Below are positions 9,193 through 60,405 of a stretch of DNA of 64,000 bases, in pieces. Each line of letters opens with the position of its first letter. Position 1 is the first letter of the stretch. Origin of the DNA: an uncultured Thermotogaceae bacterium. GTDB taxonomy: Bacteria > Thermotogota > Thermotogae > MWEM01. Below the pieces are notes generated by a model, which did no database searches, was not told the origin of the DNA, and saw only the letters and a list, made by a program, of their open reading frames with translations. A program made the position numbers and the translations under genes. Where the stretch lies: positions 7,217-71,216 of the forward strand of contig CAZRYM010000005.1 in the NCBI GenBank assembly GCA_964604305.1, read 5' to 3'.

Positions 9193-10470
9193 GTGGATTC
9201 AGCCATAGCAACAACTTCGAAACTTAATAACGGAATGGAAATATTTTCACATAAAATGAACGGAGTAAGATCCGTAAGTCTTTCGATTGCGGTAAAGGCG
9301 GGTTCTTCAAATGAACCTGCCGGAAGCTCCGGTGCTGCTCATTTTACAGAGCATATGGTTTTCAAAGGAACCAGGACCCGCTCTCCAATAGAATTAAAAG
9401 AGCCTATTGAAAGAGTTGGTGGAACGCTCAATGCTTTTACCGGTAAGGAAAATACCGTTTACTTTGCAAGGGTACCAGATTCAAAATCAAGGATAGCTCT
9501 GTCAATATTAAAGGATATATGCAGTGAGTCATTATTTCCACAGAAATTTTTTGACCTTGAAAAGCAGGTTGTTATCGAGGAAATTTCAGCTGCAGATGAT
9601 GATCCCGCTGATATTGTTTATGAACAATTTTTCAAAAATGTATGGGGAAAATGCAACTACGGGAATCCCGTTTTAGGTACACTTGACAGTATACAAGACA
9701 TTAACAGGCAAGATCTTCTTGATTTTTACAGAACCAAATATAATCCTTCCAATATGGTTTTTTCAGTAGCCGGAAATTTCCCGGTGGAACTTTTGGAAAG
9801 TTTTAATGACTTGGCCTATACTCAATCGGAAAGAGAAGTATCTTCTTTAATATACTCACCTGAACGTTCGATAACGGTTACTGAAAAGGAAGATCTAAAA
9901 CAGCTTCACATGTTGATTGGTATCGAAGCACCTTCAAGACAGGATCCGGATTTTAACGTTTTTCAAGTCTTGAATACACTTTTGGGTGGAGGAATGAGTT
10001 CAAAACTTTTCAATCGACTCCGGGAAGAATTAGGTTTGGTATACACAATAGATTCGGGATTAATAAGCTATCCGGAGGGAGGGCTTTTTTTCATTTACGC
10101 AGCAACGACACCTGAAAGGTTTTTAAAGCTCAAAGATGAACTGATGAAAGAACTTTTAAAGATCGTGAAAAACGGAATGAATGAACAGGATATCAATTAC
10201 GGAAAAGAAAGGTTGAAAGGAAAACTTCTTCTTTCAACGGAAAGCACCTATTCCACAATGATGAGAAACCTTGATACCGGCCTTGCCTTTGGTAGACCGC
10301 TGAGTGTAGAGGAAATGGTGGAAAGGATTAATGCAGTGGATATTTCCCGGATGGATAAGGTTATGGAAAAATACTTTTCACGAAAATGGATACTGAGTCT
10401 GGTGACTCCAAAAAAGATCCTGAAACAATCGTTAATCGATAACTGGGAGGAGAAGGGGATAACGATTTGA
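9193..10470 (+). CDS. M16 family zinc peptidase (insulinase-like; YmxG/MlpA-type), encoded directly after pnp
   Basis: Inverted zinc motif HFTEHMVFKGT (HxxEH). GTG 9193 is preferred (RBS AGGAAG 8 nt upstream) because ATG 9148 would overlap the pnp 3' end by 41 bp. The pnp-M16 peptidase order matches Bacillus pnp-ymxG. Confidence 0.8.
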   Translation: MDSAIATTSKLNNGMEIFSHKMNGVRSVSLSIAVKAGSSNEPAGSSGAAHFTEHMVFKGTRTRSPIELKEPIERVGGTLNAFTGKENTVYFARVPDSKSRIALSILKDICSESLFPQKFFDLEKQVVIEEISAADDDPADIVYEQFFKNVWGKCNYGNPVLGTLDSIQDINRQDLLDFYRTKYNPSNMVFSVAGNFPVELLESFNDLAYTQSEREVSSLIYSPERSITVTEKEDLKQLHMLIGIEAPSRQDPDFNVFQVLNTLLGGGMSSKLFNRLREELGLVYTIDSGLISYPEGGLFFIYAATTPERFLKLKDELMKELLKIVKNGMNEQDINYGKERLKGKLLLSTESTYSTMMRNLDTGLAFGRPLSVEEMVERINAVDISRMDKVMEKYFSRKWILSLVTPKKILKQSLIDNWEEKGITI

Positions 10471-11597
10471 AAATAATCTGGAAGCGAACAGAGGATTTAA
10501 AGGCAGGCGAAATATGTGGCGATGATGTATTCGATCCCAACAGCTTTGTTTTGCTTGCTCATAAATCCAGTATTCTGGATTCAAAAACAATCAAATATCT
10601 TCAGAGAAGGGAAGTAGAGTGGGTTCCAGTAAGAATCCAAGATGGCGGAGAAAAAGAAGAAAACATCATACTGGAGCTTGAGGACGAATATTCCAAAGAA
10701 GCCAAAGCCATTCTCTCACCAGAACTCCCCTTAATCGTTTCTGATGAAAAATACCATGAATCCATTGCCCGCTTTGAAACCGTTACGAAAACTTTTCTAA
10801 AAACAAACTCCTTTCAAAAAGAAGAAGTTGTTAATCTTAGTAATGAATTGGTGAATGAAGTGCTTAAGAGTAATTCCAGCGTTTTTAATTTCATGACGGA
10901 CATCGCCCCGGGGTTTATCATCAAACATGGAATTAACACTGCAATTCTTGCTTGTGTTCTTGGAAAGGCTTTAAATAAGTCAAGGCATGTCCTATTTAAA
11001 TTAACTAAGGTTGCTTTATTACATGATATCGGCTTAATTTACGCCGGGAAAGAAAAATCCCTGGATTATGTTGAAGATATATTTCAACAATACAAACACG
11101 GCGCATTGAACAGGGTAAAGATACATCCTGTTATTGGGGTGAAAATCATCAATAAAGTAGCCCCTGGATTTCTGGAGAAAGATGAAGAAGACGCCCTGAT
11201 CGAACATCATGAACGTTATGATGGCAATGGCTTTCCCATGGGGGCAAAGGGTGAAAAAATTAACGAAATATCTCGTTTGATGGCCATTCCCGATGCTTAC
11301 GATACCTTGATTACAAAGGTGGGAGGGAAATCCACTATGGATCCATATACCGCATTGAAATGGATAGTATCCAATTCAGGAATATTGTTCGACCCAACTT
11401 TTGTGAAGACCTTTGTCCAATTGACCGGTATTTACCCTACCGGAACCCATGTCAGATTAAGTAACGGAACCAGGGGAACAGTTATATCAAAAGGAGGGAA
11501 GGCGATAGGGCGTCCGATTTTACTGGTTGAAGATGAAGAAATCTCTTTAAGCGATAAAACAGATTTATTCATTACCGAGGTGCTTGGTGTTGATTAA
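10467..11597 (+). CDS. HD-GYP domain protein (putative c-di-GMP phosphodiesterase) with N-terminal ~90 aa domain; GYP motif variant GFP
   Basis: LLHDIGLIY (HD) and HHERYDGNGFPMG (HD-GYP signature with Y->F). The TTG start overlaps the stop of the upstream peptidase gene. Confidence 0.8.
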   Translation: MKIIWKRTEDLKAGEICGDDVFDPNSFVLLAHKSSILDSKTIKYLQRREVEWVPVRIQDGGEKEENIILELEDEYSKEAKAILSPELPLIVSDEKYHESIARFETVTKTFLKTNSFQKEEVVNLSNELVNEVLKSNSSVFNFMTDIAPGFIIKHGINTAILACVLGKALNKSRHVLFKLTKVALLHDIGLIYAGKEKSLDYVEDIFQQYKHGALNRVKIHPVIGVKIINKVAPGFLEKDEEDALIEHHERYDGNGFPMGAKGEKINEISRLMAIPDAYDTLITKVGGKSTMDPYTALKWIVSNSGILFDPTFVKTFVQLTGIYPTGTHVRLSNGTRGTVISKGGKAIGRPILLVEDEEISLSDKTDLFITEVLGVD

Positions 11598-12666
11598 ATG
11601 GAAGCAGGTCAATACATTAAGAGACGGGGATATTTGTTCCGAAACGATTATGGGAAACAACCATGATGATGTTGTCATAGAAAATGGGGAAAAGATTACT
11701 TTTAAAACAATTCAGAAGCTTCATAACAGAGGTATAGACTGGATTTCTGTTTATGAAGAAGATGAAAATGATACTCCCCTCAACGATCTCTTTACAGAAG
11801 AAAAACTCGAAAAATTTTCATCCGAATTATCTCAGGTTTGTGAAGAGACTTTGAGAGAGGGAAGAATAAATATCGGAAAGACCAAGCAGATCAGTGACGA
11901 GATTAACAAAGAAATTATTGAAGAATATGGGGAATACGTAGTCCCTTCTCTGGTAAAGTTAAAGAATATGGATGATTATACCTTTACCCACCAAGTAAAT
12001 GTTGCTATCATTTCCACTATACTTGCTACTGAGAAATATGGTAAAAAAAAGGAAATCATAGAAAAATTCACCATGGGTGGTTTATTGCACGATATGGGGA
12101 AATTGTGGATTCCCGGTGAAATACTGCAAAGTAATGAACGTTTAAAATCCTTTGAATATGATATTATCAAAAAACATCCGGAATACGGGCATAAGATCGC
12201 TTTGTTGTCTGGGGTGGATAATGAATCGATATTGAACGCTATTAAGTGTCATCACGAGAGATGGGATGGAAAGGGTTATTTGGAGGGTTTAAACGGTCTA
12301 AATATCCCTTTAGAGGGTAGGCTTTTAATGGTTGCTGATGTATTTGACGCCTTAACAACTAAACGCCCTTACAAAGATGCATGGGAGCCTTATGAAGCAG
12401 TTAGTTTTATCGTAAAGCAATCCAAGAAGATGTTCGATCCTGAAATTGTCCGACTATTTTTAATAGCGTTTGGACTTTATCCCATTAACACGAAAGTGAT
12501 TTTGACCACAGAAGAACTGGCAATAGTGGTAGGTAACAAAAGGGGTTCTATAACCAGACCCATTGTAAAAGTAATTAGGAATGATCAGGAAATAGAGATT
12601 GATTTATCAAAAGAAGAGAAAGTTAGTATTAAAAAGGTCATAAAAATAAGAATGCTGAACAATTAA
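11584..12666 (+). CDS. HD-GYP domain protein, tandem paralogue; GYP motif variant GYL
   Basis: LLHDMGKLWIP and HHERWDGKGYLEG. The N-terminal (W..V..L.DG-IC...) and C-terminal segments are collinear with the upstream paralogue. It overlaps the previous gene by 14 bp. Confidence 0.8.
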   Translation: MVLIKWKQVNTLRDGDICSETIMGNNHDDVVIENGEKITFKTIQKLHNRGIDWISVYEEDENDTPLNDLFTEEKLEKFSSELSQVCEETLREGRINIGKTKQISDEINKEIIEEYGEYVVPSLVKLKNMDDYTFTHQVNVAIISTILATEKYGKKKEIIEKFTMGGLLHDMGKLWIPGEILQSNERLKSFEYDIIKKHPEYGHKIALLSGVDNESILNAIKCHHERWDGKGYLEGLNGLNIPLEGRLLMVADVFDALTTKRPYKDAWEPYEAVSFIVKQSKKMFDPEIVRLFLIAFGLYPINTKVILTTEELAIVVGNKRGSITRPIVKVIRNDQEIEIDLSKEEKVSIKKVIKIRMLNN

Positions 12667-16494: not shown

Positions 16495-17880
16495 GTGATA
16501 GAATCCGATATTAAAAAGGCATTAAAATTATCGCTGATTGAAGGTGCAGGAGCTTCAGTCTTCTTAATTTTAATTCAAGGATTTATCTTTACAAAAATAG
16601 CACTTGAATTTGGTGTTGATGAACTTTTATTGGGTTTTTTAATGGGGATTCAACTGTTGAGCCAAGTTTTTCAAATCTTCGTTCCAATGATCATCAATCG
16701 CCTTCAAAAGAGGAAACCTTTTGTGATATTCTTTATTGCGTTATCAAGAGCTTTTTGGCCGCTTTTGCTGATTATGTCACTTTTGGGGTGGGCTAATCAG
16801 GAAGTCTTTATCACCATTATTTCACTAAGTTTTATATTTGGTGCCTTTGCAGGAAATGCCTGGACCTCTTGGATGAGAGATCTTATTCCGGATAGCAAAA
16901 TGGGATCATTTTTTGGTCTTCGTAACCTCATCAACACGGTTGTCAGTTTGATATTTACTTGGATTTTTTCAAGAATTCTTGAAAATAACCCCGATATTCA
17001 CGGAGTAAGAATCGTCATCCTGATCGGTTTTATTTGTGCTATATGGAGTATCTTCTTTTTATCCAAACAGTATGATCCGCCATTAAAAGATTCAAAATCC
17101 GGTAATCTTTTTAAGTATATTGTTTCTGATAAAAACAATATACGATTAATGGTTTTTGGCGGATTCTGGAATTTTGCAGTCTTATTCACTGCTCCTTTTT
17201 TTTCTTATCATCAAATTCAGAATCTGAATATGAGTTTTTCGTTTTTGGGATATCTGTCCATCACATTCAGCGGCGTCATGATATTGTCGGTTATTTTATG
17301 GGGGAAACTTGCCGATAAAATCGGACACAAGAATATATTAAGAATTGGTGTTGCTTTGGCTTCAGTCGTATCAATCATGTGGTTTTTTATGGCACCACAA
17401 AATTTGCATGTATTAATGTGGGTTGATGCCTTTTTAGCTGGTACAGCCTGGTCTGCAATCAACCTGTCTATTTTTACTCTTCCTCTCATTATAGGAGGAA
17501 GGTCGGCAGCAGTGGTATACGGATTTTTTTCTGCTTTCAACGGTGTTTTTGGTTTTTTGGGCTCAGTATTAGGAGGAGTGGCGGCTAAATATTTATCAGG
17601 TTATTCTTTCACACTCTTTGAATTGGATATGAACGGCCTTCAAATCATGTTCCTCTTTGGCGGTATAATGCGGTTATTTTCGCTCTACTTTCTAAATAAG
17701 ATAAACGTTTCCGGACATATCAGACTACGTACTGTCTTAGGACAAAGGGTTGTTAATATAAACAGAAGATTATCAAGAGACTTTTTTGAACCTATGCCCA
17801 GGTATATGTATCTGAAATCATTAGAGGTAGTCTCCCCCAAAAAGGCATCCAGAATCAAAAAAGAAATTTCATTGTTATAA
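16495..17880 (+). CDS. Major facilitator superfamily transporter
   Basis: 461 aa with about 12 predicted hydrophobic TM segments. MFS-like loop RNLINT between TM2 and TM3. GTG start. Confidence 0.7.
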   Translation: MIESDIKKALKLSLIEGAGASVFLILIQGFIFTKIALEFGVDELLLGFLMGIQLLSQVFQIFVPMIINRLQKRKPFVIFFIALSRAFWPLLLIMSLLGWANQEVFITIISLSFIFGAFAGNAWTSWMRDLIPDSKMGSFFGLRNLINTVVSLIFTWIFSRILENNPDIHGVRIVILIGFICAIWSIFFLSKQYDPPLKDSKSGNLFKYIVSDKNNIRLMVFGGFWNFAVLFTAPFFSYHQIQNLNMSFSFLGYLSITFSGVMILSVILWGKLADKIGHKNILRIGVALASVVSIMWFFMAPQNLHVLMWVDAFLAGTAWSAINLSIFTLPLIIGGRSAAVVYGFFSAFNGVFGFLGSVLGGVAAKYLSGYSFTLFELDMNGLQIMFLFGGIMRLFSLYFLNKINVSGHIRLRTVLGQRVVNINRRLSRDFFEPMPRYMYLKSLEVVSPKKASRIKKEISLL

Positions 17881-17884
17881 GCAT

Positions 17885-17923
17885 AAAAAAAGAGAGGGCT
17901 ATTTAAAGCCCTCTCTTTTTTTG
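17885..17923. terminator. Bidirectional rho-independent terminator (A-run / 9-bp GC-rich stem / T-run)
   Basis: AAAAAA AGAGAGGGC tatttaaa GCCCTCTCT TTTTTTT. It serves the MFS gene on the + strand and the minus-strand small-ORF/GGDEF unit. Confidence 0.75.
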
Positions 17924-17935
17924 GTTATATTAATA

Positions 17936-18046
17936 CTAAAATCTTTCAGAGAACCAATATGTCATATCTCTTGCTCGCTCTATACCTTCAACAATCATAT
18001 CTTCTTTTACTAAATTCTTCTTTAAAAAATTTCTTTTATTTTTCAT
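17936..18046 (-). CDS. Small ORF (36 aa) MKNKRNFLKKNLVKEDMIVEGIERARDMTYWFSERF with strong SD; paralogue of 18132..18242
   Basis: I translated this by hand because it is below the ORF-track size cutoff. SD AAGGAGTGA lies 8 nt upstream of the ATG. It ends right at the bidirectional terminator. Confidence 0.35.
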   Translation of the reverse strand: MKNKRNFLKKNLVKEDMIVEGIERARDMTYWFSERF

Positions 18047-18131
18047 TTTGATCACTCCTTATTTAGGTTTAAGTTTTCTTTCTCAGTGTATCAAACACAA
18101 AAGTTAAAATTCTTAAATGATAGTTTGGTTA

Positions 18132-18242
18132 TTAGTGAAGTCCCTGCATCGTCCAAAAAAATCTGTCTTTTTCCCTTTCAATCTGTTCACTTAACGTCTC
18201 GTATGGTTTTGAAACCTTTATTTTGAAAATATTCCTTTTCAT
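18132..18242 (-). CDS. Small ORF (36 aa) MKRNIFKIKVSKPYETLSEQIEREKDRFFWTMQGLH with strong SD; paralogue of 17936..18046
   Basis: Translated by hand. SD AAGGGAGGGA lies 5 nt upstream of the ATG. It shares the core E-x-I-E-R-x-[KR]-D-x2-[FY]-W with its neighbour. Confidence 0.35.
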   Translation of the reverse strand: MKRNIFKIKVSKPYETLSEQIEREKDRFFWTMQGLH

Positions 18243-18332
18243 TGTAATCCCTCCCTTTTTAGTCACATAATATTAGACGAGTTATTTATGTATAATATTA
18301 CACGCCATACCTATAATATATAGGAGGGGTTG

Positions 18333-20003
18333 TTAATATTCAGTTTTCTTTTTCTTTGACTTATACTCGTACATACGTGAATCAGCAATATGTATGATCT
18401 TCTCCAGATCATCAATACTCTTCTCTTCAAGAGTCGTGATTCCGTAACTGATTGATAGCTCCAATCCCTTTTGAAGCGTCTGCCCTTTTTCTTGAAGTAT
18501 AGAGTTGATTCTTTCCATAATTTTTTCGGATGTTTGTGCATCTGTTTTGATAAGGGCGATAACAAATTCATCTCCACCTATTCTGGAAATCAGATCTTCG
18601 GACCTTGTACAACTCAGAAGTGTTTCACCGAGTAGGTTTAAGGCCTTATCACCCATATTGTGACCGTATTGATCATTAATCTTTTTCAGATTATCCATGT
18701 CCACAAACACCAGAGTCCAGGGATAAATGTCTTTATCTATAATTTTTTTGATCTTTCTGAAAAATGTTCTTCTATTTTCCACTCCTGTCAGCTCATCATG
18801 TGAAGCAAGAACTTCCATACGGTCTTTGGCGATCTGTAAACTTTTATTTGCACTATTTTGATGGTTTATTAGAGAAGTGATTCGATGGGACATAATCTTA
18901 AAAGCATTTCCCAATTTTTCGGTTTCGCTGAAATCAGCATGTTTTTCCAGTTCCGATAATCCTAAGGAGGGATTCTTCTCATAATCATGTACCTTTTTAA
19001 TAATCATATTTAAGTTATTGACCAATTTTTTTACCTTTTGGTGATTAATTAGCACCATGATAATTAGAATGGAAGAGATGATGATGTTGAAAAGGGTTAG
19101 GAATGAATTTTTGATTTTTAAAAGTTGTGAAAAGTCTATTTCAAATTTGGTTCTTACAATGGGAGAAATTTCATTTGGGTTGAAATCTTCTTCATAAAGA
19201 CTGGTGTACACGATGTATAAGCCTTCTGAATTTTCTTTGAAAGCATAAAGTTGTTCGTTTTCAGCTTTTTTGAACATTCTTATATCATCTTTTGTCAATT
19301 CCGGGAAGTTTCCAAAAGGTTCATTCGAAACGGTATAAACAGCTATATTTTCCACATAGTCGTTGTTGTTTGCAAACAGTTGAAATTGATCGATAAATTT
19401 TTTTAAAATATCATCTTTCAACTTTAAGCCTATTTCGAAAAAATTGCCGTTGTTTAATCTATAATAACCAAAAATTCTGGGAATACCGGTTTTAACTTCA
19501 TAAAGCATCTTATCAATTTTGATTTTGTTTATTTGTAATTGATTTAAAAAAGTCCAGTATTTAGGGACTGTTTTCTGTAAATCAAGTCCAAGATCGTTTT
19601 CATAATTTGTCTTTTCTATAATGCCTTCGTTTGAGATCACATACCAGTTGACTTTTTCAACGGTATTATCCTGTGATAAATAGTGAGAATCAATTATTTG
19701 GCTGATTTGATCATCTGTAGCTTCTGGATTGTTTTCATACCAAGTGGCACTATCCTGAAGTATTTGATCCATCTTCTGTCTGTTAGTCTGTTGAAAACCT
19801 GTAATCATTTGATGCCAGTTTTCCTGATAAGAGATGACGCTTTCTACTATCGTGTTAAATATTGGATCAAAAATGTATTTTTTATAACCTTTATCGAAAA
19901 CAACATTGATGATGATAAGAAAGAATAATAAAGAGAATGCCAATGTAATGATTTGTGTTTTCAGTAAAGCGTAAATAAAACCACGTTTTTTCAAATTTCC
20001 CAC
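18333..20003 (-). CDS. Membrane-anchored diguanylate cyclase (TM - extracytoplasmic sensor domain - TM - GGDEF)
   Basis: Intact RIGGDEF with the I-site RSED five residues upstream. Other motifs: DELTGVENRR, DMDNLKKINDQYGH. Two TM helices flank a roughly 270-aa sensor domain. The start may be TTG 19994 (better RBS) rather than GTG 20003. Confidence 0.85.
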   Translation of the reverse strand: MGNLKKRGFIYALLKTQIITLAFSLLFFLIIINVVFDKGYKKYIFDPIFNTIVESVISYQENWHQMITGFQQTNRQKMDQILQDSATWYENNPEATDDQISQIIDSHYLSQDNTVEKVNWYVISNEGIIEKTNYENDLGLDLQKTVPKYWTFLNQLQINKIKIDKMLYEVKTGIPRIFGYYRLNNGNFFEIGLKLKDDILKKFIDQFQLFANNNDYVENIAVYTVSNEPFGNFPELTKDDIRMFKKAENEQLYAFKENSEGLYIVYTSLYEEDFNPNEISPIVRTKFEIDFSQLLKIKNSFLTLFNIIISSILIIMVLINHQKVKKLVNNLNMIIKKVHDYEKNPSLGLSELEKHADFSETEKLGNAFKIMSHRITSLINHQNSANKSLQIAKDRMEVLASHDELTGVENRRTFFRKIKKIIDKDIYPWTLVFVDMDNLKKINDQYGHNMGDKALNLLGETLLSCTRSEDLISRIGGDEFVIALIKTDAQTSEKIMERINSILQEKGQTLQKGLELSISYGITTLEEKSIDDLEKIIHIADSRMYEYKSKKKKTEY

Positions 20004-20087: not shown

Positions 20088-20342
20088 TTATACAGGACTT
20101 TTTCTCCTGAGATATTCTCTGACGGCATCATTTGTAAATTGCTGGATTGTTTTCTCTTCTATCTTTGCAAGTTCTTTTAAAACAGCCCAGTCTTTATCGT
20201 CTAAATCCAGCTTGATAATCCTAATCTTTCCCTTGGTCATTTCCTGGATCCATTGATTGATGTCTTTCAGATTATCTTTGATATTTTCATTGATAATGTT
20301 TTCGAAATCCTCTTCAAAATCATTATGATTTTTCTTCATCAT
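20088..20342 (-). CDS. Small ribbon-helix-helix-like protein (84 aa), last gene of DUF4097 operon
   Basis: The C-terminal half (KIRIIKLDLDDKDWAVLKELAKIEEKTIQQFTNDAVREYL) has a beta-alpha-alpha RHH pattern. It overlaps the upstream gene by 20 bp. Confidence 0.45.
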   Translation of the reverse strand: MMKKNHNDFEEDFENIINENIKDNLKDINQWIQEMTKGKIRIIKLDLDDKDWAVLKELAKIEEKTIQQFTNDAVREYLRRKSPV

Positions 20343-21513
20343 CTCTCACTTCCTGCTCACTGTTATTTGTGGTTTCTTCAGAGTTCTTTTTATTTTCCGG
20401 TATGACTTCTTCACGCATATCTTGAATCAGTTTTTCTGTTTGTTCCTCTGAATATTCCAAGATTTTTAGCATTTCCTTAGCTTCTTCCAGAGTAATAATA
20501 CCCTGTAAATAAGTATAAACAATTCTTTCAGCATCCGGATCGTGTTTAGATGTTTTCTCTTCAGTTGATTTTTCTTTTAATTGCTCAGGTGTAAATTCTT
20601 CGGTTTTGATAATCAGATCGCCAGAAACGGTTTTAGCGTTGATTTCTCCTCCTGTTCCTTCTCCAAAGGTAAACTCGTTTTTACCTTTGACTTTAGGCTG
20701 TCTCTTTTTGAAAAGTGGATCTCCGGAAACAGAAATAAAACTGACAGAAGCATCAACGGGTGTTGTGAGTATGTTGATGTCTCCACTAACCGTATTGGCA
20801 TTCCAAGAAATTTTTCGATTGACATTTTTTATCATGATATCCCCGCTGACCGTAATAATTTTTGATTCAGACGGGATGTTTCTGACGGCAATATCCCCGC
20901 TGACATTGTTGGCAGAAAGATACTGTGCGTTTTCAGAAATGGAGTCAATCTTAATGTCTCCCGATTTATCATTGCATGCTATCTGTGTTGCATCAATGTC
21001 GAAAGAAGAGATGTCTCCGCTTAATGATGAAAGGGTGCATTTATTTTCAACCTTGATCCCCTGTATTCTGATATCCCCTGATTTGGTGTTAATGGTCAGT
21101 TCATCACTAAAAGCAGCATCACATGTAATATCTCCCGATGTTGAGGAAAGTTTGATCTTTCCGCCTTTCAGTCCGTTTGCTTTTATTGATCCGGAAACGG
21201 TACTAATTGAAATTTTTTTAAGAATATCGACGGGTATTTTTAACTTGGCTTTGTATAGATTACCAACCGATGTGTTTATTGTTATTCCGAAAAATTTTAC
21301 AATATTGCTCTTATCGTCAAAACGGATAATGAGTTTTTTTTCATTTCTGACAACTTCAACATCACAGTTTTCCTTTTCCCAAATAACATCCCAAGATACT
21401 TCTGAAACTGGTTCTTCAACACCTTCTAATTCGAAATCTCCTCCAACAGTAGAGATGACGATTTCATCTATATCGGTAAGGCTTGTGTTGCCTTTTTTTT
21501 GATAGAATGACAT
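20323..21513 (-). CDS. DUF4097-like (LiaF C-domain/YvlB-like) putative adhesin/beta-helix repeat protein
   Basis: About 10 reiterations of [VTKL]SGDI spaced roughly 20-25 aa apart (VSGDI, TSGDI, KSGDIRIQ, LSGDIS, KSGDIKID, VSGDIAV, VSGDIMI, VSGDINI, VSGDPLF, VSGDLII). The start is set at ATG 21513 because of RBS GAAGGGGGA. Confidence 0.7.
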   Translation of the reverse strand: MSFYQKKGNTSLTDIDEIVISTVGGDFELEGVEEPVSEVSWDVIWEKENCDVEVVRNEKKLIIRFDDKSNIVKFFGITINTSVGNLYKAKLKIPVDILKKISISTVSGSIKANGLKGGKIKLSSTSGDITCDAAFSDELTINTKSGDIRIQGIKVENKCTLSSLSGDISSFDIDATQIACNDKSGDIKIDSISENAQYLSANNVSGDIAVRNIPSESKIITVSGDIMIKNVNRKISWNANTVSGDINILTTPVDASVSFISVSGDPLFKKRQPKVKGKNEFTFGEGTGGEINAKTVSGDLIIKTEEFTPEQLKEKSTEEKTSKHDPDAERIVYTYLQGIITLEEAKEMLKILEYSEEQTEKLIQDMREEVIPENKKNSEETTNNSEQEVRDDEEKS

Positions 21514-21526
21514 TTTTAATCCCCCT

Positions 21527-21736
21527 TCAAGCAATCAATGTTTTTATAAGCCATATGAAACCAGCCACGGCCAATATCACAATCAATATGGGTAAGAAGA
21601 TAACGAATATGCCTGCAAAAATCAAACCAACTAGAATGACAGCGCCTATTGCGACGAATATTCCGATAATCGCCGGGAATAACTTAAAACCCAAAAAGAT
21701 GAGGAAAATTGCCCCAAGAACTGATAGTATATTCAT
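21527..21736 (-). CDS. Small integral membrane protein (69 aa, 2 TM)
   Basis: Almost entirely hydrophobic (GAIFLIFLGF...ILAVAGFIWLI). Small-TM partners like this commonly accompany DUF4097 and DUF2089 genes. Confidence 0.55.
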   Translation of the reverse strand: MNILSVLGAIFLIFLGFKLFPAIIGIFVAIGAVILVGLIFAGIFVIFLPILIVILAVAGFIWLIKTLIA

Positions 21737-22113
21737 TTCTTCTCCTCCTTCTTTAACGTTCTCAACATTTCCATGGCATCCTTTGAACTTATCTCACCGT
21801 TTTCAAGCATATCAAGAATTTTTTGTGATTCTGTTCTCTCAGGTTGTGCACCTTCATATCCCATGGTTCTGACAATATCTTCCAATCTGTTTCTGGCAGT
21901 TGGGTATGAAATCTCCAACTCCTTCTGGACTTCCGAAAGATTTCCCCTGTTTTTAATAAATACTTTTGCAAAAAAAAGCTGATCTTCAGATAATTTGAAC
22001 AGCTCATCCAGTTCAAACTTTCCGTTTACCGTTGTACCACAATTACCACACTTATACTCAGAGATAAAAAGTTGATGATTACAAGCGGGACATTTAGTTA
22101 AAGTTTTTCTCAT
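21733..22113 (-). CDS. DUF2089-like zinc-ribbon + HTH protein (probable regulator of the downstream operon)
   Basis: N-terminal CPACNHQ...CGNCG zinc ribbon and C-terminal HTH (LSEVQKELEISYPTARNRLEDI). It overlaps the next gene by 4 bp. Confidence 0.6.
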   Translation of the reverse strand: MRKTLTKCPACNHQLFISEYKCGNCGTTVNGKFELDELFKLSEDQLFFAKVFIKNRGNLSEVQKELEISYPTARNRLEDIVRTMGYEGAQPERTESQKILDMLENGEISSKDAMEMLRTLKKEEKK

Positions 22114-22353
22114 TTTTCTTCACCTTCTTTCTGTTGATATAAACATTATACAGTATAAAGTTGCAAAAGTCAAGTTCTATAGAAAGATATTTAAGTTTGA
22201 AGTGAATATTATTAATGTGGAAGCGAATATATTTAATTAATTGAAGTTTTATTATTATTCAGGAGGATTAACAGACACAGCCGGTTCTTTCTGTTTGAAT
22301 GGATTACTGGCCAATGCAGTTATTCAATTTGAATCAGTAATTTTTTCCAGAAG

Positions 22354-29985: not shown

Positions 29986-31071
29986 TTAAACTCTGAAATA
30001 ATTTTTTCTGTTGTCACCCAACTTTTTTAATCCCTCAATGATGGATGTTGATCTCTTTTCCCCGATTCCCGCAACTGCCTTTAATGTTTCTGGGTCTGCA
30101 CCTCTAATGGCATTTAAGGAAGTTAATTGTTCAACCAGATTGTAGATGATATTGATGGGTATCTTGGTAACCGTTCTTATCATTCTAATACCTCTTGGAT
30201 TAATCATTTCTTCAGTAAGTAAAGATTGTACTTCTATTCCAAGATAATTTGCCATCTTTGAGTAATCCAGCAGCTCCTTGTCCTTCAGTGATTTTAATCT
30301 TTGCACACAAAGGTCTACCTTATCTTCTTCCGGAATTCCATCTGCATTTAAATAGTCGTAAACGATCAAATGAAGATTTTCTTCCAAATCTCCGATCATT
30401 TCCTGTAATTGCAAGTTTGCCAATCTTCCGTTTATCCCAAGTTCCCAAATATAAGGCTCTATTTCTTCAGATGTCCTAAGGGCAGCAATAGACTTTTCCA
30501 GGGTTCTGCACAAATCAAATACGGTAACTTGGTTTTCAATCTCTAAAGTATTCAAGTTTTCAATCTCCCTGGAATAGCTTGCACTATATTTTTCAATTGC
30601 TTTCAGCCCCTGATCCACCATGGTAATTAAAAAATTAAGATCCTTTAAGACATATGCAAATGCACCCCAATATATGCTTACAACTCCTCTTCTTCTGGAA
30701 ACGGCTATAGCCACTTTTCCTGTTTGTTTGGCAATCCTTTCGGCATTTCTGTGCCGCATACCCGTCTCTTTTGTAGGGATTGATGAATCGGGGGTCAATT
30801 GTACATTGGCGTGAAGAATTTTTGTGACATCCTCATTTAATATCACAGCCCCATCCATTTTAGTTAATTCGTAAATTTTCTGGGGCGTATAGTCACAATT
30901 TACATTGAATCCCAGTTGTATGATATTTTTATGTCTCTCGATATCTTCCTCGTTCATCAGCAGGATCAAACCACCGCTGTTTGATTTAATGATATTTTCA
31001 AGACCGAGTCTTAATTGTGTACCAGGAGAACATATTTTGATGATTTCTTTTAACAGTTCGTATTTTGCCAT
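29986..31071 (-). CDS. disA: DNA integrity scanning protein DisA (diadenylate cyclase + HhH)
   Basis: N-terminal DAC domain (GTQLRLGLENIIKSNSGGLILL, DGAVILNED..., RHRNAERIAKQTG) and C-terminal helix-hairpin-helix (AGIGEKRSTSIIEGL). Confidence 0.85.
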   Translation of the reverse strand: MAKYELLKEIIKICSPGTQLRLGLENIIKSNSGGLILLMNEEDIERHKNIIQLGFNVNCDYTPQKIYELTKMDGAVILNEDVTKILHANVQLTPDSSIPTKETGMRHRNAERIAKQTGKVAIAVSRRRGVVSIYWGAFAYVLKDLNFLITMVDQGLKAIEKYSASYSREIENLNTLEIENQVTVFDLCRTLEKSIAALRTSEEIEPYIWELGINGRLANLQLQEMIGDLEENLHLIVYDYLNADGIPEEDKVDLCVQRLKSLKDKELLDYSKMANYLGIEVQSLLTEEMINPRGIRMIRTVTKIPINIIYNLVEQLTSLNAIRGADPETLKAVAGIGEKRSTSIIEGLKKLGDNRKNYFRV

Positions 31072-58466: not shown

Positions 58467-58940
58467 TTATTCTTTTTCTCCGTCGTTTATGAGGTTAAAA
58501 ATTCTTTCTGTTCGGGATTTGACATCTCCCGATGCATTTTTCACGCCAAGGTTCGTGTTACTTTCGGAGTTTTGCGCAGAATTAAGCATTTCTACACTTT
58601 TATTGACAATGGTTTCGTAACGCTGATTCACCCTGTTGAAATCCATGAAAGTCTTCGAACCGAAAAATCCTATCGTCAATATTGCAAATCCCGCTGCAAT
58701 CTGGTAAGGTATGCTCTTTCTTCTTTTGACTCTTTTCAAAAACATCTTCTTTCCCTTTTCACTTGAACTGTAGGATGCCCTGATTTTTTGGAAATTAAGA
58801 ACTTCTTTGTAGGAAAGAAAAATGGAACGACAAGATTCACATTCCTTCATATGTTCCCTGAATTCCCTTATCTCTTTCGAGTTCATTTCGTTGTCTAAAT
58901 ATCTATCCATATAATCATCTCTGAACTCATTGCAGTTCAT
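58467..58940 (-). CDS. Anti-sigma factor (zf-HC2-type zinc finger + single TM)
   Basis: N-terminal C...H...C..C pattern (MNCNEF...HMKECESCR) and a TM helix (IAAGFAILTIGFFG). Confidence 0.65.
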   Translation of the reverse strand: MNCNEFRDDYMDRYLDNEMNSKEIREFREHMKECESCRSIFLSYKEVLNFQKIRASYSSSEKGKKMFLKRVKRRKSIPYQIAAGFAILTIGFFGSKTFMDFNRVNQRYETIVNKSVEMLNSAQNSESNTNLGVKNASGDVKSRTERIFNLINDGEKE

Positions 58941-58963
58941 TAAAATACCTCCTTATAGCTAAT

Positions 58964-59572
58964 TTAATCCCCAATACCATGCTCTTTTAACAATTTCTTT
59001 AATCTCTTTCTAGCATAATAAATCCGACTTTTAACTGTGCCCAGAGGTTTTTCAGTTATTTTACTAATCTCTTCATAATCCATTCCCTCAATGTCCCTTA
59101 AAGTAATGAAAAGATTATCCTCTTCAGACAACTTCCCCAATACACTTCTAAAATCCTCTATCCTAAGTTCGTTTCTTATATCTTCTTCAATATCGGTTTC
59201 AGAAGCGGGTTCTCCAATTCCTCCGTTTTCCTCATCTTCGAAATCCGTAAACGTTTCAGATCTCTTGGAGTATTTCTTTAAAGTATCCTTGCAAACATTT
59301 ACTGCGATACGATATAACCAGGTAGAAAAAGCTGAATCACCCTTGAATCTTTTGATACTTTTATAGACCCTAAAAAAAACTTCCTGTATGACATCCTCAA
59401 CATCGTCAACATTTAAATAAGATCTTGCGATTCCGCCTACCATACTCGCATAACGGTCATAAAGTGCTTCATAAGCCCATATCTTCTTTTTTTTGAGGGC
59501 TTTAATGAATTCCTTTTCCCCTTCGCGTATCTCCTGAGGGCTTTTTTCCTGATTTTTTTCATTGGAAAACAC
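58964..59572 (-). CDS. ECF-family RNA polymerase sigma factor (sigma-70 regions 2 and 4)
   Basis: Region 2 (ALYDRYASMVGGIARSYL...DVIQEVFFRVYKSIKRF...FSTWLYRIAVN) and region 4 (EEISKITEKPLGTVKSRIYYARKRL). Confidence 0.85.
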   Translation of the reverse strand: MFSNEKNQEKSPQEIREGEKEFIKALKKKKIWAYEALYDRYASMVGGIARSYLNVDDVEDVIQEVFFRVYKSIKRFKGDSAFSTWLYRIAVNVCKDTLKKYSKRSETFTDFEDEENGGIGEPASETDIEEDIRNELRIEDFRSVLGKLSEEDNLFITLRDIEGMDYEEISKITEKPLGTVKSRIYYARKRLKKLLKEHGIGD

Positions 59573-59625
59573 GCGCGTTTCCCCCCTACATAGGTTTAGA
59601 CTAAGAAAACTTCTAAAAGTTCAAA

Positions 59626-60405
59626 CTATTCGCTAAACCAATCAATTATTTCCCTTGCTACTCTTTCCTTTTCGACATCATTGACCACAACATGAGGGCT
59701 CTTTTCCAAGATTACGCTCTCTTTTTTTTCGGATGAGATGCCTTTTTCGATCATATACAAAACATCAACAGGTACTGTTTGATCATTTTTAGAAACGATT
59801 GTGAGGCAATCAGAATGTACTTTATTTAATCTTGTTCTGGTCAGTCTCTGAAGTTTTAGTAGATCTTGTGCCTTCGTTGGCCAATCGTAATCCCAATATT
59901 CCTTTTGAAGCTTTTGTAAATGTGCCTCTTTATGATTTTCAGATAATGGTCTCTTGATCTTTTTTTTAAATAAGCCCACAAATGGAGTGAGATAAATCAT
60001 CTTATTATAAGCCTTCAAAGCGGGAGCAGCTAGAGCAATTTTTTGAGGCCGAAATATAGACGACAATAACAGCGTCAACAACCCTCCCATGGAAAGACCG
60101 CAACAAAACACCTCCGAGAACTCTTGGATTAGGTTTAAATAGGAATCAGTTACCTTTCGAAGCCATTGGTTGTAATTGCTGTTCAAGAAATCAACATGAT
60201 TTGTGCCATGTCCGGGTAATCTGGGAATATATACTGAAAATCCGGCTTCATGAAGTTTTTTTCCTAAATACAGCATATCATGTGGAGATCCGGTATAACC
60301 ATGGATTAAAAGAATGCATGTATCACTGCCTCTGTAAAAGTGCTCCTGGCACTCTGGTGCTGCCAATGTGGTGTTTTTATCAACGTTATCAATCCACATG
60401 ATCAA
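59626..60405 (-). CDS. Alpha/beta-hydrolase fold esterase/lipase
   Basis: ILLIHGYTGSPHDM...PGHG and nucleophile elbow GLSMGG. Confidence 0.8.
   Translation of the reverse strand: MIMWIDNVDKNTTLAAPECQEHFYRGSDTCILLIHGYTGSPHDMLYLGKKLHEAGFSVYIPRLPGHGTNHVDFLNSNYNQWLRKVTDSYLNLIQEFSEVFCCGLSMGGLLTLLLSSIFRPQKIALAAPALKAYNKMIYLTPFVGLFKKKIKRPLSENHKEAHLQKLQKEYWDYDWPTKAQDLLKLQRLTRTRLNKVHSDCLTIVSKNDQTVPVDVLYMIEKGISSEKKESVILEKSPHVVVNDVEKERVAREIIDWFSE

Follow-up and report, generated by a model that had tools for sequence, protein, structure and literature searches.

Results

Two tandem sORFs and their probable transcription unit

Two short open reading frames lie in tandem on the minus strand of the window, by which we mean the whole 64-kb stretch of DNA analysed here. 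The first, sORF1 (18132..18242), begins with an ATG at 18242, ends with a stop codon at 18134-18132 and encodes the peptide MKRNIFKIKVSKPYETLSEQIEREKDRFFWTMQGLH. The second, sORF2 (17936..18046), begins with an ATG at 18046, ends with a stop codon at 17938-17936 and encodes MKNKRNFLKKNLVKEDMIVEGIERARDMTYWFSERF. Each comprises exactly 36 codons and is preceded on the same strand by a Shine-Dalgarno (SD) site: GGGAGGG for sORF1 (18249..18255), with its GGAGG core 7 nt from the ATG, and AAGGAGTGAT for sORF2 (18051..18060), where the ATG follows 8 nt beyond AAGGAG. SD1 is kept as AAGGAGGGA or AAGGGAGG in all lineages and SD2 is invariant in all of them. Coordinates, translations and SD sites all agree with the original prediction, as does the strong bidirectional terminator that it had placed beyond sORF2. 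This intrinsic terminator (17884..17923, acting on both strands) has 17 pairs with T-runs on either side and is common to the sORF unit and a convergent gene for an MFS transporter; an equivalent hairpin is found 3′ of sORF2 in the other lineages too.

The spacer between the two sORFs (18047..18131, minus strand) measures 85 nt in the window and 58–93 nt in relatives. With an identity of 0.46–0.62 it is unalignable, SD2 being its only conserved part. A terminator scan of the window and relatives found no terminator inside the spacer, and none was found between the GGDEF gene upstream and the sORFs. Given an upstream element about 30 nt 5′ of sORF1, a terminator-free spacer, an SD site for each ORF and a terminator after sORF2, we infer from this anatomy that sORF1 and sORF2 form one bicistronic unit. 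Because the junction upstream of the sORFs is also terminator-free, read-through transcription from the GGDEF gene is possible as well.

The pair had originally been described as invisible to ORF calling. This holds in part: sORF2 is missed by gene callers on some contigs, but both peptides are gene-called, without a name, in a public protein collection. NCBI nr holds one sORF1 homologue, listed as 'hypothetical protein PWQ84_643 [Thermotogaceae bacterium]'.

Coding status and extent of the family

The tandem pair was found in 12 of 12 related lineages, drawn from MAGs and metagenomes that include anaerobic-digester samples, in the same order and with 35–36 aa for each member (36 aa throughout for sORF2, 35–36 aa for sORF1). 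Start codons, stop codons, length and SD sites are kept in all 12. The ORFs are 65–86% identical among relatives, in contrast to the unalignable spacer, and their variable columns are distributed over codon positions 1/2/3 as 20/18/32 in sORF1 and 21/25/32 in sORF2. The checks of coding status proposed with the original prediction included conservation of the reading frames and Ka/Ks. Both frames are kept far beyond chance, and both of these checks were passed decisively, with pS of about 0.7 against pN of 0.15–0.17 at p of about 1e-21 to 1e-23; pooled over independent pairs, the values are pS 0.70 and pN 0.15 for sORF1 (Fisher p = 3e-23) and pS 0.67 and pN 0.17 for sORF2 (Fisher p = 2e-21). 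For individual pairs dN/dS is mostly 0.06–0.25, with dS at or near saturation. We regard the codon-position pattern and dN/dS as decisive, and conclude on these sequence grounds that sORF1 and sORF2 are genuine, paralogous protein-coding genes.

The paralogy itself, as claimed at the outset, is real but weak. BLASTP aligns sORF1 with sORF2 at 11/29 identities (E = 1e-4), hhalign matches the family profiles to each other at E = 4.7e-4 with a probability of 32%, and each family HMM recovers the other family at E 0.03–0.5 in a small database.

HMMER searches over 1.84 billion cluster representatives returned six real matches, all of 35–36 aa. A profile of 17 sequences, run against 5.8 billion proteins in a word-indexed profile search, returned 22 clusters of 35–45 aa, all from this clade (E 1e-9 to 1e-16), with no weaker matches up to E = 10 beyond them; two 45-aa clusters represent sORF2 called from a start further upstream. 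A DNA-pattern scan of metagenomes matched the same clade only, and no fusion to a larger protein was seen in either protein search or in the metagenome scan. The sole long match, P0029 (1720 aa), was rejected as a repetitive coiled-coil artefact. Single sequences and family profiles had no match in Pfam, NCBIfam, PHROGs, PADLOC or PDB sequences; hits to DUF3155 (E = 0.012–0.03) and to a carnosinase fragment, 'EKEKDRFF', were set aside as sub-threshold chance matches. The window over its full length and all 43 loci, searched in six frames with the HMMs, yielded no further paralogues, and the next-closest relatives, whose MFS orthologues are 57–63% identical, have different neighbours and no sORFs within 13 kb. 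To judge from these searches, sORF1 and sORF2 make up an orphan family that is closed and restricted to one uncultured Thermotogota clade ('Thermotogaceae bacterium'). The family is new, with no Pfam or NCBIfam model, and unnamed.

Properties of the encoded peptides

Members of the sORF1 family end in the signature ...EQIEREKDRFFWxMQGLH and those of the sORF2 family in ...IEQARDMTYWFSERF. The N-terminal third is variable and basic (net +4) and the C-terminal 17–18 residues are invariant, with a Trp at a fixed distance before the stop in all lineages (6 residues in sORF1, 5 in sORF2). The pattern E-x2-E-R-x2-D-x3-W, common to both paralogues, falls on one helical face and a hydrophobic stripe on another. 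AF2 models, of moderate confidence (pLDDT 74–78, pTM about 0.4), show sORF2 as a single helix spanning residues 3–35 (pLDDT 78) and sORF1 as helices 5–11 and 13–33 with a kink at Pro13 (pLDDT 74), rather than the helical hairpins that had been expected.

Charged residues account for 36–42% of the peptides, mean hydrophobicity is low (0.2–0.28), there is no hydrophobic stretch, and the net charge of the conserved C-terminal half is negative. The predicted products are soluble, highly charged, alpha-helical 36-aa microproteins. The earlier statement that they are not hydrophobic type I toxins is borne out by this composition. A type I toxin or membrane microprotein was rejected for want of a hydrophobic transmembrane segment, and a membrane-binding amphipathic helix was rejected in view of the low hydrophobicity and the net negative conserved C-terminal half.

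Genomic neighbourhood and a conserved upstream element

Genes for DUF2089, a 69-aa protein, Toastrack (DUF4097) and an 85-aa protein lie upstream of the sORF pair on the shared strand, with the GGDEF gene between or not; this arrangement holds in all lineages with enough flank. The DUF2089-Toastrack four-gene context has been put forward as a counterpart of the lia/psp envelope-stress operon (PMC11237479). Because synteny is uniform across the clade, adjacency carries little information on pathway.

Upstream of sORF1 lies an element of roughly 37 nt (18267..18303, minus strand), a candidate promoter or operator with the sequence (G/T)TGTAATATTATA - N6 - TAACTCGTCTA - N - TATTAT. It is near-invariant in 12 lineages, against saturated synonymous sites and an unalignable spacer, and still adjoins sORF1 in L043 despite an insertion of ~455 nt and in L026 despite deletion of the GGDEF gene. 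Two readings of the element are possible, one ECF-like (TGTAAT-N17-CGTCTA) and one weakly sigma-70-like (TATACA-16-TATTAT); a sigma-70 scan detects it in the window and L022 only. ECF promoters are described by a -35 AAC, a -10 CGT or CGTC, a spacer of 14–17 bp and a T-tract beside the -35 (PMC5758882). The invariant CGTCT lies 17 nt past AAT, in agreement with the -10 and spacing rules. The AAC hallmark of the -35 is absent, all 12 lineages having TGTAAT or TGAAAT; with AAT in place of AAC, the ECF reading fails on the most conserved ECF feature.

The element is unique in the window: motif searches match the sORF1 site only, no second regulon member was found within the 64 kb, and loose versions of the motif are no commoner there than in shuffles. 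The same window contains an ECF sigma gene with a zf-HC2 (ZAS) anti-sigma gene (58467-59572); the sigma gene occupies 58964-59572. The sequence TTGAACTTTT-N-AGTCTAA lies 5′ of the sigma gene, and its likeness to the sORF1 element is statistically indistinguishable from chance in 64 kb. If the resemblance of the sORF1 element to this presumed autoregulatory promoter is meaningful, expression of the pair would depend on a stress sigma factor. Stress-sigma-dependent control is our best guess, based on the ECF-promoter resemblance and the adjoining Toastrack/DUF2089 envelope-stress-type module.

Candidate functions of the pair

On balance, we favour the view that the sORFs are co-transcribed and encode soluble microproteins that bind a partner, with dedicated control that may depend on a stress sigma factor. 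Each product would be a single long helix, unable to fold alone, and its most likely action would be stoichiometric binding to a conserved cellular protein; the two helices may pair with each other before the partner is bound. This is an argument by analogy, as most characterised bacterial microproteins act via stoichiometric binding to a larger protein. The C-terminal 17–18 aa are conserved at every residue, which is unlike a simple one-face helix interface; a peptide that lies buried in a groove or tunnel could show such conservation as well. A more specific version, which we consider improbable, has the pair as an ECF-controlled heterodimeric two-helix module that docks on a core component of envelope-stress response or signalling, the Toastrack/DUF2089 system and the anti-sigma factor being examples. 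In a more exotic variant, the contiguously invariant C-termini would serve as nascent-chain sensors in the ribosome tunnel.

The original prediction had looked to the neighbouring signalling genes, with the sORFs as small, Sda- or Spo0E-like regulators of adjacent c-di-GMP or two-component proteins, their target being either the GGDEF cyclase or the PAS histidine kinase. The pair does directly follow the GGDEF gene in most lineages with no terminator between them, and the PAS histidine kinase and two HD_5 proteins are close by. However, in L026/L027, the most abundant and most widely sampled lineage (73 index blocks), the GGDEF gene is reduced to a C-terminal remnant that matches residues 451-552 and has a premature stop, while both sORFs and the upstream element are intact and the sORFs show pN/pS of 0.06–0.3. 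The functional tie to the cyclase is weakened because purifying selection still acts on both sORFs in this lineage, where the cyclase gene has been lost; this natural deletion is the basis for INDEPENDENCE from GGDEF, and suggests that the target is not the adjacent cyclase, or not only the cyclase. The pair also has a conserved upstream element to itself. Pfam, NCBIfam and PDB revealed no homology to Sda, Spo0E or other inhibitor families, with no Sda or Spo0E-like Pfam match at E ≤ 1 for any of the 17 family members; AF2, at moderate confidence, does not predict a hairpin fold; and short BLAST and HMM comparisons with the window ORFs gave chance-level matches only, with no sign that the sORFs mimic any local sequence of the histidine kinase or GGDEF protein. 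A role as regulators of these neighbours is, in our estimation, unlikely.

The pattern of conservation brings to mind regulatory nascent peptides, either ribosome-arrest or leader peptides, whose invariant C-termini would act in the exit tunnel to control expression in cis. A variable N-terminus ahead of a segment conserved at each residue, the constant Trp-to-stop distance in all lineages and the strong SD sites are all of the expected kind. What such peptides would control is the difficulty, and makes this explanation very unlikely: there is no cis target downstream, since only the terminator and the convergent gene follow sORF2; the spacer has no conserved sequence or structure except SD2; and the G+C-rich stem of the terminator begins ~20 nt past the sORF2 stop, out of reach of a stalled ribosome.

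We give even less credence to the idea that the sORFs are precursors of a pheromone, RiPP or leaderless bacteriocin pair, exported through the neighbouring MFS transporter. In its favour, two paralogous genes for short, cationic peptides with a Trp adjoin the transporter gene in tandem in every lineage, and a gene for a B12-binding radical SAM protein lies ~4.5 kb away. Yet the peptides show neither a signal peptide nor a double-glycine leader, they lack a Cys/Ser/Thr-rich core and a hydrophobic face, the adjacent genes include no modification enzyme and no immunity gene, and PADLOC and Pfam give no match. The MFS gene runs convergently to the sORFs and, in relatives that have no sORFs, is conserved beside other neighbours. 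Near-invariance across species (dN/dS ~0.1, core syntenic position) is likewise unlike bacteriocins or signals that diversify by pherotype.

That the region is non-coding, a conserved small RNA or a 3′-UTR element of the GGDEF mRNA with fortuitous ORFs, is effectively refuted by the substitution pattern: although folding of the 463-nt region is somewhat more stable than that of shuffles (z = -2.6) and a C-rich tract past the GGDEF stop can pair with SD1, codon positions and dN/dS are decisive for coding, the start and stop codons, length and SD sites are conserved in the 12 lineages, Rfam has no match at gathering scores (the best, GibS sRNA, scoring 34.5 bits against a gathering score of 115), and RNAalifold yields only -4.8 kcal/mol with a covariation term of essentially nil. 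A long-range anti-SD:SD helix in the RNAalifold and MFE folds was also considered and rejected, 74.7% of cells being paired against 72.5% when shuffled and 73.5% when slid by one column.

Discussion

Annotation systematically misses many proteins of less than 50 aa, and to our knowledge almost nothing has been learned of small proteins in Thermotogota. The sORF pair is a clean, well-supported case: an orphan family with a strong coding signature, strict pairing and a dedicated conserved element. As one of the two genes goes uncalled on some contigs, the pair is well suited to a new family model and better annotation.

The pair is also a tractable candidate for learning how microproteins connect to circuits of envelope stress or second messengers. 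The loss of GGDEF in L026/L027 weighs against the most obvious partner, the GGDEF cyclase. Should an ECF-controlled heterodimer docking on a stress component prove true, Lia/Psp-like stress systems of a deep-branching phylum would gain a previously unknown class of small proteins for output or feedback. Practical impact is limited by the uncultured host lineage and the narrow family, and nothing points to an unprecedented mechanism.

Several known systems bear comparison. Like the promoters of ECF sigma factors of the sigmaW/X/M/V type, the sORF1 element has an invariant CGTCTA that matches the -10 CGTC, and its TG(T/A)AAT, 17 nt upstream, resembles TGAAAC/TGTAAC; unlike them, it has AAT at the position of the -35 AAC, and in contrast to ECF regulons no other member was found in the window. 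The WXG100 proteins EsxA and EsxB are a tandem paralogous helical pair of about 100 aa that heterodimerises, with a WXG turn and a helix-turn-helix hairpin. By analogy only, the sORFs are also adjacent, paralogous, of equal length and helical, with a conserved Trp, but they are 36 aa long, lack the WXG turn and the helix-turn-helix hairpin, and have no Pfam match; neither the window nor the related loci analysed show an evident type VII secretion context.

The Toastrack/DUF2089 four-gene context (PMC11237479) is shared to the extent that the sORFs lie downstream of it on the same strand, although they fall outside the four-gene unit as described and are preceded by a conserved element of their own. 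The association of this context with the sORFs is seen within one clade of close relatives only.

Sda, MciZ and CmpA of B. subtilis and SgrT and MntS of E. coli are cytoplasmic microproteins that bind a larger protein. The sORFs differ from these in having no detectable sequence similarity to them, in belonging to the phylum Thermotogota and in always occurring as a tandem paralogous pair; from Sda, a helical hairpin, they differ further in that a single long helix is predicted. In common with all five, the sORFs are of the same size class (about 30–46 aa), have no signal peptide or transmembrane segment, and possess a dedicated strong ribosome-binding site and helical propensity, and their conserved aromatic and charged residues suggest an interaction surface.

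A pair of conserved 36-codon genes

Reading of the minus strand and a listing of its ORFs of at least 20 aa between 17700 and 18500 bore out two tandem 36-codon ORFs: sORF1 (18242->18132, minus strand; product MKRNIFKIKVSKPYETLSEQIEREKDRFFWTMQGLH) and, following it, sORF2 (18046->17936, minus strand; product MKNKRNFLKKNLVKEDMIVEGIERARDMTYWFSERF). Both have the strong Shine-Dalgarno sites originally described, SD1 (GGGAGGG, 18255-18249, minus strand) and SD2 (AAGGAGTGAT, 18060-18051, minus strand), each at a spacing of 7-8 nt. The pair indeed lies between a GGDEF protein gene on the same strand (556 aa, 18333-20003), located 5′ of sORF1, and a bidirectional terminator with a 17-bp stem (17884-17923), located 3′ of sORF2 and common to the convergent gene for an MFS transporter (461 aa, 16495-17880; Pfam). 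The suggested paralogy also holds, weakly but credibly: the peptides, which are equal in length, match with a BLASTP E-value of 1e-4 and a profile-profile E-value of 4.7e-4, and carry a common core, E-x-I-E-[RQ]-x-[KR]-D-x2-[FY]-W, in the same register.

Scanning a genome collection for the GGDEF protein returned a single orthologous locus, from an uncultured Thermotogaceae MAG (L001; GGDEF identity 76%), with both sORFs at the same place and 36 aa each. Further relatives were found by exact-match and profile searches and their contigs retrieved, giving 12 distinguishable lineages: that of the window (with the near-identical strains L012 and L013), L026, L030, L031, L001, L024, L022, L015, L016, L028, L014 and L043. 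All 12 carry the pair in the order sORF1, sORF2, at lengths of 35-36 aa and with SD1 and SD2 kept. The public gene caller omitted an intact sORF2 in L030 (3177-3287) and L031 (501-611), where sORF1 is listed. On other contigs sORF2 is called at 37-45 aa via upstream in-frame starts, and annotation of the family is inconsistent.

Reading-frame conservation and Ka/Ks both support the original prediction that the ORFs are genes. Nei-Gojobori dN/dS values are mostly 0.06-0.25, with synonymous sites saturated or nearly so. Pooled over five phylogenetically independent pairs, pS is far above pN, both for sORF1 (0.70 vs 0.15, Fisher p=3e-23) and for sORF2 (0.67 vs 0.17, p=2e-21), and variable alignment columns concentrate at third codon positions. 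Substitutions are thus distributed as in coding sequence. The ORFs retain 65-86% DNA identity across lineages, in contrast to the 58-93 nt spacer between them, which is essentially unalignable (identity 0.46-0.62) apart from the invariant AAGGAGTGAT. sORF1 and sORF2 are almost certainly real genes.

Distribution of the family

Neither peptide had a meaningful match in Pfam, NCBIfam, PHROGs, PADLOC or PDB sequences. Exhaustive HMMER searching of 1.84 billion cluster representatives yielded six real matches, all of 35-36 aa, and a 17-sequence profile run against 5.8 billion proteins recovered 22 clusters (35-45 aa, E 1e-9 to 1e-16) with no weaker match up to E=10. The sole name in any source is "hypothetical protein PWQ84_643 [Thermotogaceae bacterium]". 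A metagenome pattern scan gave no match outside the same clade, and the 64-kb window holds no third copy. The sequences form two clean subfamilies, with the C-termini ...EQIEREKDRFFWxMQGLH (sORF1 type) and ...IEQARDMTYWFSERF (sORF2 type). MFS orthologues are 79-88% identical among sORF-bearing genomes; in the next relatives (MFS identity 57-63%) the neighbours differ and sORFs are absent within 13 kb, and the closest named cultured MFS homologue, from Kosmotoga pacifica, shares only 33% identity. Judged from these searches, the family is narrow, orphan and lineage-specific. sORF1 and sORF2 represent a new family of orphan bacterial microproteins that is well supported as real: its evolutionary signature is unusually clean, the two genes are strictly paired and their control element is conserved. 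It is confined to one uncultured lineage, and nothing points to an unprecedented mechanism.

Transcription and candidate upstream control

An element of ~37 nt upstream of sORF1 (18303-18267, minus strand), (G/T)TGTAATATTATA-N6-TAACTCGTCTA-N-TATTAT, is almost invariant in all lineages, its conservation (74-82%) being on a par with that of the ORFs. sORF1 keeps it despite deletion of GGDEF in L026 and L027, and in L043 despite a ~455-nt insertion just 5′ of the element. This insertion (L043 27-480), between the post-GGDEF region and the element, is non-coding and relatively G+C-rich, lacks an Rfam match and has similar short sequences (ATAATAGG..CC.TG) at both ends, which suggests a small mobile element or duplication. 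In the lineages scanned, no terminator separates GGDEF from sORF1 or sORF1 from sORF2, and one always lies 3′ of sORF2. The simplest reading, and in our view a probable one, is that sORF1 and sORF2 form a bicistronic unit driven by a promoter of their own, to which read-through from GGDEF may add. A complement of SD1, the C-rich tract CCCCTCC (18329-18323, minus strand), lies 4 nt past the stop codon of GGDEF, and this long-range anti-SD pairing is present in the MFE fold. It was rejected as evidence for an RNA-level role, as across 12 lineages it did not outdo controls that were shuffled or slid, and L016 and L028 lack it.

As a sigma-70 promoter the upstream element is poor and unconserved, TATACA-16-TATTAT passing the scan in the window and L022 only; the DUF2089 operon, by contrast, has a textbook TTGACT-17-TGTATAAT promoter 5′ of the DUF2089 gene. 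If the element is read instead as TG(T/A)AAT-N17-CGTCTA, it is similar to ECF-sigma promoters, in which a spacer of 14-17 bp separates AAC at -35 from CGT or CGTC at -10 (PMC5758882). The window encodes an ECF sigma factor of the RpoE/SigW type (202 aa, 58964-59572, minus strand) with a zf-HC2 (ZAS) anti-sigma gene 3′ of it (58467-58940, minus strand). The sigma gene is preceded by TTGAACTTTT-N-AGTCTAA, a textbook-looking ECF promoter with a T-tract adjoining its -35 element; both genes together with this sequence occupy 58467-59624 (minus strand). The sORF element has AAT instead of the hallmark AAC in every sORF lineage; counts of relaxed ECF-like motifs in the window were not above shuffles, and no second site for the sORF motif was found there. 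The likeness is suggestive only, and ECF-sigma control of the pair is possible but doubtful. The 259-aa protein encoded just 5′ of the sigma gene (59629-60405, minus strand) ends in ERVAREIIDWFSE, similar, probably by chance, to ERARDMTYWFSE at the C-terminus of sORF2 (blastp-short E=0.16, tiny database).

Predicted structure and possible function

AlphaFold2, run with family alignments, predicted helices at residues 5-11 and 13-33 of sORF1, broken at Pro13 (pLDDT 74), and one helix for sORF2 (residues 3-35, pLDDT 78), with confidence peaking in the conserved C-terminal half. Neither model is the compact helical hairpin that had been expected. The peptides are, as first described, not hydrophobic: charged residues make up 36-42%, the N-terminal third being variable and basic (net +4) and the C-terminal half slightly acidic. 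A moderate hydrophobic moment (0.3-0.5) and low hydrophobicity mark them as soluble, not membrane-active. On a helical wheel, E19, E22/R23, D26 and W30 (sORF1 numbering), common to both paralogues, fall on one face and a hydrophobic stripe, Y14-L17-I21-F28-M32-L35, on another. Within each subfamily the final 17-18 positions are conserved throughout, which suggests that these residues are extensively buried in a partner.

We propose that the products may be two soluble microproteins, each a single helix, that are expressed together and would bind a conserved protein of the cell, possibly pairing as a heterodimer via their hydrophobic stripes, with the common Glu/Arg/Asp/Trp face as recognition surface and expression from a dedicated, regulated, possibly ECF-sigma-dependent promoter. 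The chances of such a partner-binding mechanism are about even.

The original prediction took a role in modulating signalling as plausible, given the neighbouring GGDEF cyclase and orphan histidine kinases. In L026 and L027, the most often sampled lineage (73 index blocks), the cyclase has been knocked out naturally: all that is left of GGDEF is a C-terminal remnant (L026 2650-3000, likewise in L027), which tblastn aligns solely to residues 451-552 and which has a premature stop and an internal gap. Both sORFs, SD1, SD2, the upstream element and the flanking 83-aa gene are intact, and sORF comparisons involving these genomes give pN/pS of 0.06-0.3. By this comparison the sORFs do not require the cyclase, which argues against the main function originally suggested; inhibition of GGDEF or a histidine kinase is unlikely. 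Nascent-chain arrest peptides would fit the contiguous C-terminal conservation and the fixed Trp-to-stop distance but have no cis target here, and we consider them improbable; that the products are exported peptide precursors seems highly improbable. A non-coding RNA is scarcely credible: the coding-type substitutions and the conservation of the ORFs beside an unalignable spacer lead us to reject an RNA-only explanation, and Rfam gave no gathering-score match for the region.

Genomic context

Gene order is identical throughout the clade, running rpsI, dnaG, sigA, Zn-peptidase, FlK, B12-binding radical SAM, DUF2089, a 69-aa gene, Toastrack/DUF4097, an 85-aa gene, GGDEF, sORF1, sORF2, then the convergent MFS gene, the PAS histidine kinase gene and others; adjacency alone therefore says little. 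The window is rich in genes for nucleotide second messengers: besides GGDEF it encodes a diadenylate cyclase, DisA, and a tandem pair of HD_5 (HD-GYP-like) paralogues (spans 10467-12666, plus strand, and 29986-31071, minus strand). The unit at 20088-22180 (minus strand) comprises DUF2089 (Zn-ribbon/HTH/SHOCT), the 69-aa gene, Toastrack/DUF4097, whose product has weak LiaG similarity, and the 85-aa RHH-like gene. Four-gene units of the DUF2089-Toastrack type have been described as probably analogous to the lia operon of the envelope-stress response (PMC11237479), and the genes at 20088-22180 match the "four-gene context" of that PSP survey.
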